Below, in pieces: positions 9,908 through 16,479 of a stretch of 64,000 nucleotides of DNA. This DNA comes from a virus (lineage: Duplodnaviria; Caudoviricetes): IMG/VR virus record IMGVR_UViG_3300032312_001422, positions 64,001 to 128,000 of that record, one strand, 5' to 3'. Made by a program: the position numbers and the translations under genes. How positions within the stretch are numbered: position 1 is the first letter of the stretch; each line of letters opens with the position of its first letter. The notes beneath the pieces are model-generated. The model worked only from the letters and a program-made list of their open reading frames with translations, ran no database searches and was not told the origin of the DNA.

Positions 9908-11362
9908 ATGTTATTCGAAATCCACGCTGAGCGTAACGCCTCAGACAAAAAAATCTTTTATTATGACAACGAAACCAACACTTTAAAAAGTGAAGATGGT
10001 ACAGTATTTGAGTACCCGCAAATACAGGAACAAAATCAGACACCATTTGTTCCTTTCGATCGCAACCGACCCTTGAAGAAAAGCCGTGCAATACAGTTAT
10101 TGAAGATCCAAATGGGACTCAGTTGTAACTATAGTTGCGATTACTGTAGTCAAAAGTTTGTGGAACGTGCTCCGGAAACTTCAAAGAAAGACATTGATCT
10201 TTTTTTAGAAAAATTCAAAGTGTTAGAGTTTGATGAACAAAAGGGACTCAAAGTAGAGTTTTGGGGCGGAGAGCCATTTGTATATTGGAAAACATTCAAA
10301 CCCTTGGCTGAAGCTATTCTGGAAAAATTTTCCCATTGGAAACGCAAGCCACAGTTCAGTGTGATCACCAATGGCAGCATACTCAATGAGGAAATCATTG
10401 ACTGGCTTATGAAGCTGAACTTTGTTGTGAGCATCAGTCACGACGGTCCGGGACAACATGTGCGTGGACCCGATCCTTTTGCAGATCCTGAAAAGAAAAA
10501 ACAGATCCTGGGATTTTATCGTCAAATGAGTCGACTCAAAAAGGGCTTTAGTTTTAATCCCATGCTGAATGCTCAAAACATCAGTCGTAAACGGATCTAT
10601 GATTGGTTTGTGGATTTCACTGGAGATCCCAATGTAGTCCTAGGCGAGGGCGGAATCGTAGACAGCTATGATGCGGATGGCATGCAAAACAGCCTGCAAA
10701 CCAAACAGCAACATTTTGAATTTAGACGTACAGCCTTTGCTGATATCTTTAGCACACAAGGGCAAATTGGATTCAAGATGCAGTTGGACAAAATTGATGG
10801 CTTTACACAAAGCGTGTTGAGTCATGCTGATTCCAAGTATCTGGGACAAAAATGTGGCATGGACAATGAAAACACCTTGGCCATTGACCTACGTGGTAAT
10901 GTGATGACTTGTCAAAACGTCAGCAGTCTTGAAACTGGCAAAAACGGTGAAAGCCACTTGGGTGGTAATTTAGATGACTATGACAACGTGGCCATCAAGA
11001 CAAGTACACATTGGTCGAATCGTGCCGAATGCCCCAAGTGCCCTGTGTTGCATCTCTGTAAAGGTGCCTGCATGTTCCTGGACAAAGAGTTTTGGGATGT
11101 CAGTTGCGCCAACTCCTATTCAGACAATGTGGCCCTGTTTGCCTTGGCCATAGAAAAAATAACGGGTTATATTCCCACCTTGATCAAACAAGATGAATTG
11201 CCTTTGGAACGTCAAGACATATTTGGTACCATATACCAGCACACAGAAACTGAAAAGAAACGCATTATACCTATCAAAATTGTCAGTGAAGTAGTTGGAG
11301 AAATTGAAGGTGTTGAAGTGTATGGGCAAAGTCGTGTAGAATCAGTCATAAATACTCAATAA
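9908..11362 (+). CDS. radical SAM enzyme with SPASM domain
   Basis: CNYSCDYC (CxxxCxxC), FWGGEP, SISHDG; SPASM C-x13-G-x4-C and CPKCPVLHLCKGAC-x11-C. Confidence 0.95.
   Translation: MLFEIHAERNASDKKIFYYDNETNTLKSEDGTVFEYPQIQEQNQTPFVPFDRNRPLKKSRAIQLLKIQMGLSCNYSCDYCSQKFVERAPETSKKDIDLFLEKFKVLEFDEQKGLKVEFWGGEPFVYWKTFKPLAEAILEKFSHWKRKPQFSVITNGSILNEEIIDWLMKLNFVVSISHDGPGQHVRGPDPFADPEKKKQILGFYRQMSRLKKGFSFNPMLNAQNISRKRIYDWFVDFTGDPNVVLGEGGIVDSYDADGMQNSLQTKQQHFEFRRTAFADIFSTQGQIGFKMQLDKIDGFTQSVLSHADSKYLGQKCGMDNENTLAIDLRGNVMTCQNVSSLETGKNGESHLGGNLDDYDNVAIKTSTHWSNRAECPKCPVLHLCKGACMFLDKEFWDVSCANSYSDNVALFALAIEKITGYIPTLIKQDELPLERQDIFGTIYQHTETEKKRIIPIKIVSEVVGEIEGVEVYGQSRVESVINTQ
11349..11354 (+). promoter_or_regulatory. 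late promoter box for the Cys-rich gene
   Basis: TAAATA inside the 3' end of the rSAM gene, about 20 nt before ATG 11375. Confidence 0.6.
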
Positions 11363-11374
11363 AGTGAATTTACT

Positions 11375-12283
11375 ATGACACTACCAGCATCAGGACAAAT
11401 TGCAATCAGCGACGTCAGCGCCAAAATTGGGCAGGCCGCCACTTTCTCCACAAGTTTAAATTTCCTCAATGGATTAATTCGTAGTGATCAACGCCCGGCC
11501 ACACCTAGCATGACTGCTTTTTACAACAAAAACTATTTTCAAAATACTGCCGACGGTGCCAACTGTGCCAACGGCAACTGCACAGCAAATTGCAACTGCG
11601 GCAATATTCAATGTACTAATTGTGTCATAACTGGCACGATTAATTGTGGCAATTGTGACAGTCAGGCCTGGTTGCAGAATAACTGTAACTGTGCCTGTAC
11701 ATATAACTGTACCAGTGCAAACACAAGTTATGCGTGTAACTGTGCCTGTAACTGTAGTAAAATTATCTGCGCCAAGTTATACGACTTTGGCCTAATGGAT
11801 CAAAATATTTGGGCAGCTGACCAAGCATACGGTCAGTGGTTGCGTAAGAAAGACCGTAGAGTATATCGCGGTTATGTTCGCTGGGCACGTATTGTTACTG
11901 CTTGGATGGACGGCAAAGGTCCCAACTACATGCCCTGGATCTTGGATGCTGACCGTCGTAGTGAGGCACAAAAGGCCGCTATCACAGACATGGCTATCAA
12001 GATCGGCACACCATGGTCAGAGCATATGGCCTACTTGATGGGTGCGTTGCCCGAAGACAACGTCCAAGGACGTATTCTAATGGAAATAGGTAAACCTATT
12101 TGCCGATTTGTCGATAGCTTACCACGTGTTGGTAAAAAGTCACGTCGCCATCGCTTACCAACATTATACACAATGTGGGCTTTGTTTTACTTGAGTTACT
12201 ACACTTCTTTGGTAGGTGCTCGAACTCATTTGTTTTTTAAAAGTTTTAGTTTTGACAAACTAAGACAAAGGACAATAAAATGA
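11375..12283 (+). CDS. Asn-Cys-rich protein, candidate rSAM substrate and probably virion-associated
   Basis: 17 Cys in residues 64-132, 12 of them as NC dipeptides; MTLPASGQIAISDV N-terminus; C-terminal domain starting KIICAKL. Confidence 0.8.
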   Translation: MTLPASGQIAISDVSAKIGQAATFSTSLNFLNGLIRSDQRPATPSMTAFYNKNYFQNTADGANCANGNCTANCNCGNIQCTNCVITGTINCGNCDSQAWLQNNCNCACTYNCTSANTSYACNCACNCSKIICAKLYDFGLMDQNIWAADQAYGQWLRKKDRRVYRGYVRWARIVTAWMDGKGPNYMPWILDADRRSEAQKAAITDMAIKIGTPWSEHMAYLMGALPEDNVQGRILMEIGKPICRFVDSLPRVGKKSRRHRLPTLYTMWALFYLSYYTSLVGARTHLFFKSFSFDKLRQRTIK

Positions 12284-12918
12284 CCACGGTCATTGATGAA
12301 AGTATTTTTTCCAGTAGTGTGAAACAATCATTATGGGAATGTCCGGTGTGGCACCAAAAAACTCCGTTTACAGAAACGTTTAATAAAGAGTTGTTGAAAG
12401 AAATGTACGAGATTGCTAGTACGTTTGACGAATCCTCAGGGAAAGAATCCCTATTAGATTATGATCGTCCCTGTATGCAAGAATTAATTGACTTTAAGAC
12501 TGAGGTAATCACCAATGTTGTCAATCAATACATGCCAGACACGCAAGAAGCCCGGTTTGTTGTATCGGGTGCTTGGCTTAATGTAAACACAGCCGGAGAA
12601 CGAATCGAACTTCATGCACACCCCGATTCGTCTATAGCTTGTAGTTATTACATACAAGGACCAGATGTTGGCGGTGAGTTTTACTATGTTGATACCGGCA
12701 GAGTTGGCGAGCACCGAACAGAAATTAAAACAATAACCCCTAAAAATGGCGACATGATATTTTTGCCATCGTATGTGCTACACGGAGTCAAGATGAATCT
12801 GGGGAGATGTAGAGTAAACCTGACTACAGATTTTAAACATGACCTTACCAAAGACAGCAAGGATCAGTTAGTGTTGAAAAGTTTTATAAACAGTATGCTA
12901 AGGATTAAGGATTTATGA
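12280..12918 (+). CDS. putative 2OG-Fe(II) oxygenase (TIGR02466-like)
   Basis: WLNVN...LHAHP...CSYY...FLPSYVLHGV...RVNLT. Confidence 0.8.
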   Translation: MTTVIDESIFSSSVKQSLWECPVWHQKTPFTETFNKELLKEMYEIASTFDESSGKESLLDYDRPCMQELIDFKTEVITNVVNQYMPDTQEARFVVSGAWLNVNTAGERIELHAHPDSSIACSYYIQGPDVGGEFYYVDTGRVGEHRTEIKTITPKNGDMIFLPSYVLHGVKMNLGRCRVNLTTDFKHDLTKDSKDQLVLKSFINSMLRIKDL

Positions 12919-13313
12919 GCGATATTATTGTAGGCAAGCAACCAGTAGATTTTGATGCTGAAGATTACAACCGATATGTCAAGTATTTTTTAGACACTGA
13001 AGTTGGCGGTATTGTGTTCAATCTCACCAAGGATGAACAAGACAGCTTCTTTGAGATGTGTTATCGATATCCTGTCATATTAGACAAAGTGTTTTTGCTA
13101 CCCGGTGATCCTTTAATGAATTATATCATGTATGGTAACGAATTTTATGATGCACTCAAAAATCCACATGATGGTATTGACTTTAGTCCAAGCTACATTG
13201 TGGCTCAATATCGAGAGTGGGCTAAGGCACGCAATATACCCGAGCCTGTAGATCAAGTGGCAGTTGAAGGCTTAGATGTCACACCCATGCTGGAATTCCA
13301 AAAACAGCTATGA
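12915..13313 (+). CDS. hypothetical protein
   Basis: ATGA-coupled ORF inside the cluster; no motif recognised. Confidence 0.7.
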   Translation: MSDIIVGKQPVDFDAEDYNRYVKYFLDTEVGGIVFNLTKDEQDSFFEMCYRYPVILDKVFLLPGDPLMNYIMYGNEFYDALKNPHDGIDFSPSYIVAQYREWAKARNIPEPVDQVAVEGLDVTPMLEFQKQL

Positions 13314-13876
13314 ATCGGTACTATACTAAGTTAGATAGTATTAGTCCAAGCCTGTACAACAATTTTGAAAACCTAGGCGAACAACACGTTTGCGGCGGTG
13401 GATGGACTAGATACTACCGCACCAACTTGAGCAGAAATATACTATTGCCAGACCACTTGAAGCAGAGTTTTAATCTAAGCTACATGACATTTATTGGCGA
13501 CAATGCTCATCCACATGTGGATTTAGAGATAGGTTGTAGAATAAACATATATCTGTCTGACAATAAATGCCCAACCAAGTTCTTTAGTGTAAAGTCTGAG
13601 GAATTTACCAAACCCAAACCAGTCACGTGTGTAGGGTGTACAGTAGAAAAGTTCTGTGCTGGAGAGTGCCAGTGCAGTTACAAACTTGATAATCTAATGT
13701 TAGAGGATGAATTCGTAGCCCGCAAACACGACATATACCTGTTAAATATTCGCAAGATACACAGCGTAGAAGGACTCAGTAAAACCAATTACAGAGAAGC
13801 CCTGTCGTTTACCACCGATCTTTCTTATGAAACAGTATACGAATCTTTACAGCAATATGGCGCATTCTCTGTTTAA
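13310..13876 (+). CDS. 2OG-Fe(II)/cupin-like oxygenase with inserted Cys motif
   Basis: HVD, IHSV and R-x-A-x-S triad pattern; insert CVGCTVEKFCAGECQC. Confidence 0.65.
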   Translation: MNRYYTKLDSISPSLYNNFENLGEQHVCGGGWTRYYRTNLSRNILLPDHLKQSFNLSYMTFIGDNAHPHVDLEIGCRINIYLSDNKCPTKFFSVKSEEFTKPKPVTCVGCTVEKFCAGECQCSYKLDNLMLEDEFVARKHDIYLLNIRKIHSVEGLSKTNYREALSFTTDLSYETVYESLQQYGAFSV

Positions 13877-14384
13877 AAAACTTGCTGTAGCAGCCAATAT
13901 TGATTTTAAAATTCTAGATAAGAAAATAGAATTTGAGTTAGACTCTGCAGGTCGCCGAATACAATACTCCAACGTATCTTCACGCTACGTAGACAATTTC
14001 ATAGCTGGTCTTGGCCATCACGGAAAGCATTTTTATACAAGTTTTGTCAGCGTAGAAACAAATGTGCCGCCACACACAGACATTGTTGATCGAGTCAACA
14101 TCAACTTCTACATAGAAACAGGTGACTACCAAACTACGTTTTACAGAAGCAATGACAACTCAGCACGATTTACCTATGCAGATCACGGCGATGGTCATGC
14201 GTATCGTATAGAAGAACTAGAGCCTGTGGATAGTTTTGTTGCCCAACCCGGCGATGTGTACATTTTAAATGGTAAAAATATTCACGGAGTTGCCTGTACA
14301 GAGCCTACACCAAGAAAATTTTTGCAAGTCTCTACCAACCAGTTAGAATATGATCAAGTTTTAGAAATTTTGAATCTATGTTAA
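13857..14384 (+). CDS. 2OG-Fe(II)/cupin-like oxygenase
   Basis: PPHTD, NINFYI, IHGV, RKFLQVS; ATG 13857 preferred. Confidence 0.65.
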   Translation: MAHSLFKKLAVAANIDFKILDKKIEFELDSAGRRIQYSNVSSRYVDNFIAGLGHHGKHFYTSFVSVETNVPPHTDIVDRVNINFYIETGDYQTTFYRSNDNSARFTYADHGDGHAYRIEELEPVDSFVAQPGDVYILNGKNIHGVACTEPTPRKFLQVSTNQLEYDQVLEILNLC

Positions 14385-15082
14385 TGTTGATCTATACCAT
14401 TGCAACAATTCACCTGGGCTGTGCAGTGGCTTCGTTGTACATGCATCGGTATGTGATACACAGACAGTATCGTATGACTCCAAGAACAGAAATGGTCATG
14501 AAAGTCATGTATTGGATGTTGTTTGATGTGGTCACTAGAGAGTTTGTGGTACAACATAGAAAGCATCATGAATTCTCAGACACATACAATGATCCTCACA
14601 GTCCGAGATTTGGTTTTTGGTCATTGCTGAGATCTTGTCTGGTTCCAAGCTTCTTTAGATCCTACAAAATAACTGTGTCCGATTCGGAGTATCAGCGATA
14701 CGGTGCCGAGACTGCCACCAACACCGTTATTGATCGACACCCAAGATTGGGAGTTGTATTGTTATTGGTAATAAACATTGTGTTGTTTGGTTGGTTGGGT
14801 ATCATTGCGTGGATCGTCCATTTGTTTGCTGTGAATTTTTTAATAATAACAACAATAACAGTATTTGGGCATAGCATTGGCGGCAGGAACTTTGATCTTG
14901 GCGACTTTACTCGTAATGTTGTTCCTGTTGGCATATTGTGTGTGGGCGAAGAGCTACACAACAATCATCATAAAGATAGCAGGCTGTATAACATGGCTAT
15001 AAATAAAAATGAATTCGATCTAGGATTCTTTTATCTACAACTTTTAAATCGATTTGACTTGGTTCAATTCAAACAAAAATGA
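14378..15082 (+). CDS. membrane fatty-acid (acyl-CoA/lipid) desaturase
   Basis: His boxes HRYVIH, HRKHH and HNNHH plus TM segments. Confidence 0.9.
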   Translation: MLMLIYTIATIHLGCAVASLYMHRYVIHRQYRMTPRTEMVMKVMYWMLFDVVTREFVVQHRKHHEFSDTYNDPHSPRFGFWSLLRSCLVPSFFRSYKITVSDSEYQRYGAETATNTVIDRHPRLGVVLLLVINIVLFGWLGIIAWIVHLFAVNFLIITTITVFGHSIGGRNFDLGDFTRNVVPVGILCVGEELHNNHHKDSRLYNMAINKNEFDLGFFYLQLLNRFDLVQFKQK

Positions 15083-15678
15083 AAATAACTAAAACAGACA
15101 TGTGGGTGACCCCAGTGTGGGAAATTCAAACCGACTTTGACCAACAGTTCAACAACGAACTGCTGGACGAGCTTGGGCAGTACTGTGATCCCGAATCGGA
15201 TGTGGGCAACTCTAATATCTGGAACTGTGACACGCCACGAGTACAAGAACTAAAAAAATACACTATCAAAGTAGTCAAATCACAAACATACGATTACATA
15301 GCACCAACTGTCAAAGACTTTGAATTCTGGCACGCCCGTGGTTGGTTAAATTATCACAAGACAGGTGAAGGTATTCCCATACACGGACATGGTAGCCCTA
15401 AGATTGCAATGACCTACTATGTCAAGGCTCCCGACAACTGTGGGGATTTGTTACTGATAGATCCTCGCAACGGTTGCGACTGGGATTCAGGCAACGATGG
15501 TGTCAATGGTACCAAGTTTAACAGAATTAAACCAGTCGAAAGCAAACTGGTATTTTTCCCAGGGTTTGTATTACACATGGTCGAACCCAATCAGTCTGAC
15601 CAAGTTAGGGTATCTGTAACCAGCAACATGGGCACATTTGATAAAAGTACTGCTCAAGCATTTAAAAATACACTATAA
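15079..15678 (+). CDS. putative 2OG-Fe(II) oxygenase (TIGR02466-like)
   Basis: WLNYH...IHGHG...YYVKAP...FFPGFVLHMVEPN...RVSVTSN; paralog of 12280. Confidence 0.8.
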   Translation: MKITKTDMWVTPVWEIQTDFDQQFNNELLDELGQYCDPESDVGNSNIWNCDTPRVQELKKYTIKVVKSQTYDYIAPTVKDFEFWHARGWLNYHKTGEGIPIHGHGSPKIAMTYYVKAPDNCGDLLLIDPRNGCDWDSGNDGVNGTKFNRIKPVESKLVFFPGFVLHMVEPNQSDQVRVSVTSNMGTFDKSTAQAFKNTL

Positions 15679-15687
15679 GGATGTACA

Positions 15688-16479
15688 ATGTCATTCTATG
15701 AAAAATTAGACTTTATCAAATATGATCATGACCGCCTGGTGACCGATGTGCAACAACATGTGTTCAGTCTGGGACAAGCTGTTATACAGGGCGAGGAATA
15801 TGAAACCGATGCCTACAAGGGTTTTGGTGGATGGAGTCTGCAGAGTCAAACCGGAGACTGGCAAGACGGCTGGGAATTTTTTCAAAACGAAGAAGGCACC
15901 ACTATTGAAGAAGTATTCTTTCCCAAGGATGCTAACAATTACACTACCTTAAAATACTTTAATATTGCACATTCTTTAGAGTACAAAAAGCCCACACAGG
16001 GCTATTGCGGTGAGATTGCCGAGGTGATTGATCAAATAGAGGCATTCGGCTTGACACCTAGACGAGCCAGAGTAACCTGTTTAAAAGCTGGTAGCAAAAG
16101 CCTAGTACACAGAGATTGTGGTGAAAACCAATACATGGCACGTATACACATACCCCTGATCACCAATCCTGAGTGTACTTTTACTGCCGAAGGAGAAACC
16201 TTATACATGGAACCCGGTACGGCCTACATGGTCTGGGTAAATGTGTGGCATCAGATTCGCAATGATTCGGAACAAGATCGATATCACATAATTATGGATG
16301 CTTACGATACCAGACATGTCACAGATAAGTTCAAGTACATGGGTGATATTAGCCAGTTGGAAACCTTTGCCAACGAATTGCGGCAACAGGTTGATCAAGC
16401 TGTTGTTACTGCAGATTTGGAACAAAAGTTTGAAACTGAATTGGCAAAATGGCGAACTAAATCCAAGGTTGACACATAA
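15688..16479 (+). CDS. aspartyl/asparaginyl beta-hydroxylase-family oxygenase
   Basis: RARVTCLKAG, VHRD, RIHIPLITN, WHQIRN, RYHIIMD. Confidence 0.85.
   Translation: MSFYEKLDFIKYDHDRLVTDVQQHVFSLGQAVIQGEEYETDAYKGFGGWSLQSQTGDWQDGWEFFQNEEGTTIEEVFFPKDANNYTTLKYFNIAHSLEYKKPTQGYCGEIAEVIDQIEAFGLTPRRARVTCLKAGSKSLVHRDCGENQYMARIHIPLITNPECTFTAEGETLYMEPGTAYMVWVNVWHQIRNDSEQDRYHIIMDAYDTRHVTDKFKYMGDISQLETFANELRQQVDQAVVTADLEQKFETELAKWRTKSKVDT

Follow-up and report, generated by a model that had tools for sequence, protein, structure and literature searches.

Among Fe(II)/2-oxoglutarate (2OG)-dependent oxygenases, KDM4A holds a structural zinc through Cys234, His240, Cys306 and Cys308, and this site adjoins substrate-recognition residues, so that ejection of the zinc inhibits the enzyme (PMC6010108). 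Here we analysed a 188-aa protein encoded on the + strand at 13310..13876 of a 64,000-nucleotide window, i.e. bases 64001-128000 of the 288,815-bp IMG/VR virus record IMGVR_UViG_3300032312_001422, a giant freshwater phage. The protein has a double-stranded beta-helix (DSBH) fold, is very probably an Fe(II)/2OG oxygenase, and carries in one loop four invariant cysteines that would probably bind zinc. An earlier note on this DNA had described the cysteines as a SPASM-type CX2CX5CX3C motif inserted in a 2OG-Fe(II) oxygenase, possibly acquired from or cooperating with a neighbouring radical SAM (rSAM) enzyme, and had held that no described enzyme has such a fusion. This last statement is too strong for a zinc site, given KDM4A (PMC6010108), and would hold only for an Fe-S cluster.

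The features of the 188-aa protein are as follows, in window coordinates.

13310..13876, + strand: small DSBH protein of 188 aa, probable Fe(II)/2OG oxygenase (open reading frame, homologues, AlphaFold2 model, VIA-align)
13628..13675, + strand: Cys loop, residues 107-122 (translation, homologue alignments)
13514..13522, + strand: HxD, H69-V-D71, predicted Fe(II) ligands at the end of beta-II (invariant in 84/84)
13760..13762, + strand: H151, predicted distal Fe(II) ligand on beta-VII (invariant; paired with the TVHS His of 1e5r in a profile match below significance)
13793..13795, + strand: R162, predicted 2OG C5-carboxylate Arg at the start of beta-VIII (invariant; aligns with the Arg of ISRQSL in 1e5r in the same weak profile match)
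13385..13405, + strand: second clade-specific insert, H26-x-C28-G-G-G-W32, at a hairpin tip (alignment against Cys-less relatives)

Residues 107-122 (nucleotides 13628-13675) read CVGCTVEKFCAGECQC, with the layout C107-VG-C110-TVEKF-C116-AGE-C120-Q-C122. Cysteine makes up 1.3% of the residues in the + strand open reading frames of the 289-kb genome, and at least five cysteines per 16 residues were found at two sites only, this loop and an Asn-Cys repeat protein encoded upstream of it. Because cysteine is this rare and such clusters occur at two sites only, the Cys loop is real and not a chance grouping. Across 19 close homologues C107, C110, C120 and C122 never vary, and C116 gives way to Ser in two of them (P0014 and P0015). 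A sister clade at 44% identity (P0027 and P0123) keeps the same four cysteines, in loops that read C-IG-C-NIEKF-T-AGE-C-A-C and C-SG-C-NIEKF-T-SGE-C-A-C; no genomic context of P0027 was found in viral and metagenome scans. Over 35 distinct loop-bearing sequences, position 116 is occupied by Cys 28 times, by Ser five times and by Thr twice. As C116 varies and C122 never does, the constrained unit is CX2C-X9-CXC and not CX2CX5CX3C, and C116 is, to judge from the alignments, dispensable. The two close pairs, C107-x2-C110 and C120-x-C122, both invariant down to 44% identity, correspond to the pattern of a Zn(Cys)4 knuckle. The earlier note had proposed a homologue alignment as a check on the conservation of its motif; the four loop cysteines come through it and C116 does not.

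In 69 Cys-less relatives the segment equivalent to T89-F135 has a median length of 34 residues, against 46 in the clade of the 188-aa protein (12 longer). This segment is entirely without Cys in 64 of the 69 and usually includes a conserved NQTNG motif. Positions 104-111 are a true insertion, being gapped in 61-68 of the 69 relatives, and G118-E-C120-Q-C122 replaces their QTNGx. An auxiliary metal site, as the earlier note proposed, is a reasonable inference because the Cys cluster is inserted between the ligands, is strongly conserved and is lacking in relatives; of the Fe-S and Zn options that it named, the balance leans to zinc. The loop peptide, searched alone against Pfam and PDB sequences, gave no match at E<=10.

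The clade has a further distinguishing cysteine in its second insert. C28 is invariant in all loop-bearing sequences including the 44% sister clade, in which H26 is changed to Tyr, and columns 26 and 28 are gapped in 66 of the 69 Cys-less relatives. C28 may serve as a fifth ligand or may pack against the Cys loop.

The AlphaFold2 model computed with an 84-sequence alignment had a predicted local distance difference test score (pLDDT) of 90.9 and a predicted template modelling score of 0.88, with the loop blocks at 82-87. It contains eight core strands.

beta-I: residues 55-61
beta-II: residues 66-69, ending in HxD
beta-III: residues 76-81
beta-IV: residues 88-94
beta-V: residues 129-136
beta-VI: residues 142-145
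beta-VII: residues 150-153, with H151
beta-VIII: residues 162-169, with R162 at its start

The Cys loop lies in a longer loop, residues 95-128, that includes a short helix at 112-116, and the strand order of the model makes this segment a beta-IV/beta-V insert. Structure prediction, which the earlier note had also suggested, thus returned an oxygenase DSBH fold with the loop between beta-IV and beta-V. The beta-IV/beta-V loop is the most variable element of the 2OG oxygenase fold and is often part of the substrate-binding lid.

The model was compared with 48,161 PDB representatives using VIA-align. About 40 of the best 50 matches were 2OG-Fe(II) oxygenases, including 6n1f (Z 9.9-10.3), the proline 3-hydroxylase 1e5r (Z 9.7-11.0) and OGFOD1 (Z 9.3-9.6); AspH, collagen and HIF prolyl hydroxylases and AlkB homologues were matched as well. 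The eight core strands and these Z scores identify the protein as a DSBH protein. Of all columns in the 84-member family alignment, only H69, D71, H151 and R162 do not vary. H69 and D71 at the end of beta-II and H151 on beta-VII make up a facial triad conserved in 84/84 sequences, and R162, at the start of strand 162-169, is the basic residue of beta-VIII. The HxD...H...R pattern that the earlier note had read from the translation is therefore present, and invariant in the 84 sequences.

Sequence comparisons placed the protein in no named family. Pfam, PHROG and NCBIfam scans gave no match for it, including to any curated model of the 2OG superfamily, and PF05118 was touched by only 5 of the 84 family members, at E>=0.004. 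An hhalign comparison of the family with the alignment of a neighbouring 2OG-FeII_Oxy_5 (Oxy_5) protein gave E 7.7e-4 with a probability of 25% over 101 columns; it spans the HxD, distal His and Arg positions and agrees in register. The same comparison with the AspH-like neighbour was not significant, either with the single sequence or with a 38-sequence alignment. A PDB sequence search with a profile of the close homologues found no match, and one with the 84-sequence profile gave a spurious match to RsgI and a non-significant one to 1e5r (E 1.1), in which H151 and R162 are paired with the TVHS...ISRQSL segment. The fold and the four invariant residues are the grounds on which we place the protein in the superfamily; it is very probably an Fe(II)/2OG oxygenase of an unnamed family.

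The 26 close homologues (69-95% identity) are all metagenomic and without names. HMMER, run exhaustively over 1.84 billion cluster representatives, retrieved 81 proteins of 104-216 aa, typically 170-190 aa in size, and among the matches listed none had a precomputed Pfam domain or a name beyond 'hypothetical protein'. BFVD contains, from an uncultured Caudovirales phage, an 'uncharacterized protein' that is 74% identical and whose independent model superposes at a TM-score of 0.99; the neighbours in the ESM Atlas are viral clusters throughout, none of them with a Pfam family. The family apparently occurs, so far, only in phage or metagenome sequences. A blastn search with the cassette described below found no match in the phage collection, and the only tblastn match there was gp06 of Roseobacter phage CRP-3. 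This hypothetical protein (L014, MK613345.1, 2563-3120) is the only cultured-phage relative found, and the genes around it encode thymidylate synthase, primase, helicase and DNA polymerase. Given this position amid replication genes, some members of the family act outside the rSAM cassette.

Nearly all long open reading frames of the window are on the + strand, and the gene of the 188-aa protein sits in a run of + strand genes (9908-16479) that overlap or closely abut. The other genes of this cassette, assigned by Pfam, PHROG and NCBIfam scans, are the following.

9908..11362, + strand: radical SAM/SPASM enzyme, first gene of the cassette (PF04055, TIGR04085 and PapB-like models; CX2CX5CX3C at nucleotides 11030-11071)
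11375..12283, + strand: Asn-Cys repeat protein, presumed cassette substrate (open reading frame and Cys scan; co-occurrence with the rSAM gene)
12280..12918, + strand: 2OG-FeII_Oxy_5 (TIGR02466-like) oxygenase, cassette member (family models)
12915..13313, + strand: 132-aa open reading frame, orf132, cassette member (synteny)
13827..14384, + strand: Cys-less paralog of the 188-aa protein, same DSBH family, start probably the ATG at 13857 (BLASTP)
14378..15082, + strand: desaturase-like membrane protein, PF00487-type (family scans, synteny)
15079..15678, + strand: second Oxy_5 oxygenase, Oxy5b (family scans, synteny)
15688..16479, + strand: AspH-like hydroxylase (family scans, synteny)

No family match was found for orf132 (12915-13313). 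Its stop codon is overlapped by the ATG of the 188-aa protein (ATGA), so the two genes are translationally coupled, and orf132 accompanies the cassette in 11/11 close and 13 distant loci.

The paralog is 26% identical to the 188-aa protein (BLASTP E 1e-8), and the BLASTP alignment has a 14-residue gap exactly over the loop, in agreement with the earlier note that the paralog lacks these cysteines. The two genes stand in tandem in 11/11 close loci. In place of NQTNG the paralog has the His- and Asp-rich loop YADHGDGHAY, and its sequence gives a weak match to the L-isoleucine dioxygenase model NF041274 (E 0.0014).

The 11 close viral loci have the same gene order over the part that each contig covers: rSAM, Asn-Cys repeat, Oxy5, orf132, the 188-aa protein, paralog, desaturase, (Oxy5b), AspH. 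The gene of the 188-aa protein is the best conserved of the cassette across these loci (72-93% identity), and the Asn-Cys repeat and rSAM genes occur together in 10 of the 10 that are complete. Scanning with an alignment of a subset of the Cys-less relatives added 80 distant viral loci. A Cys-less family member, single-copy in most of them, is adjoined by rSAM and Asn-Cys repeat homologues in 25 of the 80 and by an AspH-like gene in 34, the usual order being rSAM, Asn-Cys repeat, (orf132), (Oxy5), DSBH, AspH. The cassette with a DSBH member was seen in contigs L017, L021, L037-L040, L051, L056-L058, L066-L077 and L081-L088. A separate tandem duplication of Cys-less members (L083:5911-7099, L084:4982-6173, L085:1224-2415 and L086:5911-7102) is independent and belongs to another cassette-bearing phage lineage. 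Distant desaturase-like (PF00487-type) genes adjoin Cys-less DSBH members in L015, L016, L090 and L094, even without the rSAM gene, which hints at a recurring DSBH-desaturase pairing.

In a maximum-likelihood tree of 64 family members, built with a quick method, the loop-bearing proteins form one clade with an SH-aLRT support of 100 and a stem of 1.69 changes per column. The clade is nested in a weakly supported group of mostly cassette-associated members, and the deep branches of the tree are unresolved. Since the loop-bearing proteins are a single clade, the loop has one origin: it appeared in a duplicate that diverged fast, and the DSBH oxygenase that was duplicated was by then an established part of the rSAM cassette.

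We lean towards an explanation in which the protein is a duplicated minimal 2OG oxygenase whose lid has been rebuilt around a structural Cys4 zinc site. The 188-aa enzyme, one of a tandem pair, would bind Fe(II) by H69, D71 and H151 and the C5 carboxylate of 2OG by R162. Its beta-IV/beta-V substrate loop would have been rebuilt as a four-cysteine knuckle, C107-x2-C110-x9-C120-x-C122, most likely chelating one structural Zn(II); from the cysteine pattern, zinc is the probable metal. By fixing the shape of the lid, the zinc would give a substrate site that differs from that of the adjoining paralog. The enzyme would probably act on the same Cys/Asn-rich, putatively fibre-type protein as the paralog, at another residue or face.

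Several observations weigh against this explanation. A model of the protein computed from a shallow alignment had a pLDDT of only 74.8, with the loop below 50; it was dropped in favour of the 84-sequence model, and a Foldseek search with it gave generic cupin matches only, at a TM-score of about 0.4. The sequence-level links to named 2OG families are below significance, and no known zinc-finger family matched the loop. C28 is a clade-specific fifth invariant cysteine, beyond the four needed per metal. By its cysteine pattern, a Zn(Cys)4 site is indistinguishable from an Fe(Cys)4 site or a small Fe-S cluster, and the substrate is assigned from the gene neighbourhood alone.

The alternative that best withstands the evidence, though we consider it unlikely, is that C107, C110, C120 and C122, possibly with C28 or C116, bind redox-active iron as a [2Fe-2S], [4Fe-4S] or rubredoxin-like Fe(Cys)4 centre. 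Such a centre would serve electron transfer or O2/redox sensing, perhaps for the desaturase encoded two genes downstream or for the rSAM chemistry. Fe-S or two-site arrangements are kept alive mainly by C28, which brings the invariant cysteines to five where one zinc needs four, and C116 adds a sixth cysteine within the loop in most sequences. The cassette already relies on Fe-S chemistry through its rSAM/SPASM enzyme, and a desaturase-family protein follows the oxygenase pair in this lineage; PF00487 enzymes need an external electron donor, for example ferredoxin, cytochrome b5 or rubredoxin. 2OG oxygenases, in contrast, do not require external electrons. Moreover, the loop spacing has no classical Fe-S or rubredoxin signature (CX2CX2C, CP and CPxCG are all absent), no Fe-S family matched the loop, and four cysteines within 16 surface-loop residues are typical of a zinc knuckle. 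Desaturase homologues are also found in cassettes with Cys-less DSBH members only (L058, L075, L081 and L082), and a role of the Cys loop as the desaturase's electron donor was rejected on this ground. No Fe-S cluster inside a 2OG oxygenase fold appeared in the titles from a literature search, and we are aware of no earlier case of an Fe-S or rubredoxin-type centre in this fold. That C28, C107, C110, C120 and C122 together hold an Fe-S cluster or a rubredoxin-like iron in the substrate lid is unlikely.

A metal-free loop, in which two disulfides or free thiols stabilise the loop or act as a redox switch, is also improbable. The invariant loop cysteines are even in number and closely paired, and 2OG oxygenases with disulfides exist, for example AspH and ALKBH5. 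This enzyme, however, would act in the reducing host cytoplasm beside an oxygen-sensitive rSAM enzyme, and its 188-aa sequence has no signal peptide or virion-type features. A CxxC and a CxC nine residues apart in a short loop are, furthermore, a chelating arrangement.

Still less likely is a DSBH/cupin protein that binds without catalysis, for example as a chaperone of the Cys-rich substrate or as its docking factor, and that would use the Cys loop as a protein-protein interface. Its small size of 188 aa and the lack of a significant sequence match to a named oxygenase family would suit such a role, but the only four residues that are invariant among 84 diverse sequences are exactly the HxD...H triad and the beta-VIII Arg, whose retention is not expected in a protein without catalysis.

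The earlier note's comparison with the rSAM enzyme starts from a correct reading. The rSAM open reading frame (9908-11362), 2.6 kb upstream, encodes CPKCPVLHLCKGAC at nucleotides 11030-11071, and both translations bear out that the two proteins share the CX2CX5CX3C spacing. This spacing was found at three sites in six-frame open reading frames of at least 60 aa, namely the rSAM enzyme, the 188-aa protein and one antisense frame. In the same set of loci the motif is intact in 27/27 distinct rSAM homologues (64-93% identity); in the loop, the third cysteine is lost in 7/35 sequences, being Ser or Thr in these, and C122, which lies outside the motif, is invariant. BLASTP aligned the two proteins over 14 residues only, with 6/14 identical, four of them Cys and the others Val and Gly (E 0.21), and acquisition of the loop from the rSAM enzyme was rejected on this value. 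The rSAM enzyme matches TIGR04085 at E 2.7e-8, and the 188-aa protein matched no SPASM model at E<=1. It also lacks an upstream CX9-15GX4C element and a downstream seventh Cys, which Haft and Basu reportedly described in 2011 as the other elements of the SPASM domain. Its 16-residue motif sits in a loop of a DSBH barrel, which is not the SPASM fold, in a protein without an rSAM domain. Given a CX2C-X9-CXC scaffold, a fifth Cys placed anywhere in the nine-residue spacer produces the SPASM spacing in about 1 of 9 cases; the identical spacing is therefore weak evidence, and it looks coincidental.

The conservation pattern, the BLASTP result, the missing SPASM match and the empty loop searches thus leave both the 'SPASM-type' label and an origin from the rSAM gene unsupported, and a SPASM-type module in the loop, homologous to or copied from the rSAM auxiliary-cluster motif, can be dismissed as very improbable despite the identical spacing and the shared Val and Gly in two genes of one cassette. 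Cooperation with the rSAM enzyme fares better in that the two proteins share a conserved cassette and pathway, but the whole family does so, with or without the cysteines.

If the cysteines do hold zinc, the pair would show cleanly, in nature, how a minimal 2OG oxygenase gains a new specificity after duplication, with the unmodified paralog adjoining it for comparison. The unnamed DSBH family is a core part of a widespread cassette of rSAM, Asn-Cys protein and hydroxylase genes, which probably modifies a putative virion fibre-type protein, and its membership provides a short list of candidate enzymes for the Asn-Cys substrate. An Fe-S cluster or a rubredoxin-like iron, if that were the case, would mean a redox or O2-sensing centre in a family that normally needs no electron donor, evolved in a phage cassette where oxygen-sensitive radical-SAM chemistry stands beside oxygenases that depend on oxygen.

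Compared with known systems, the SPASM domain (TIGR04085/PF13186) shares its CX2CX5CX3C spacing with most, not all, members of the loop-bearing clade; it differs in that the third Cys is unconserved here, the further SPASM cysteine elements are missing, its models give no match and the surrounding fold is another. Phage 2OG-Fe(II) oxygenases (phrog_81 and 2OG-FeII_Oxy_5, some of them annotated 'DNA endonuclease V') are likewise small DSBH proteins present in several copies per genome. Two of them are encoded in this very cassette, and the BFVD matches of the 188-aa protein include cyanophage ones; its own family is separate from these, without a PHROG match and with only the remote hhalign link (E 7.7e-4). 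The small prolyl/aspartyl-type 2OG-Fe(II) oxygenases, i.e. 1e5r, Burkholderia 6n1f, OGFOD1, AspH and PBCV-1 vCPH, resemble it in fold (Z 8-11 over 125-145 residues) and in HxD...H...R. They are only 9-14% identical to it, and the 1e5r profile match aligns no Cys to the loop. JmjC enzymes of the KDM4A/JMJD2A type, to which no sequence similarity was found, are alike in being DSBH Fe(II)/2OG oxygenases with an extra zinc site beside the substrate region and a CxC pair, the metal of the phage protein being a predicted one. The KDM4A site is Cys3His, and in this large eukaryotic enzyme of several domains its ligands come from both the JmjC domain and a C-terminal segment, whereas the phage protein would supply all four Cys ligands from 16 residues of one loop within 188 aa.

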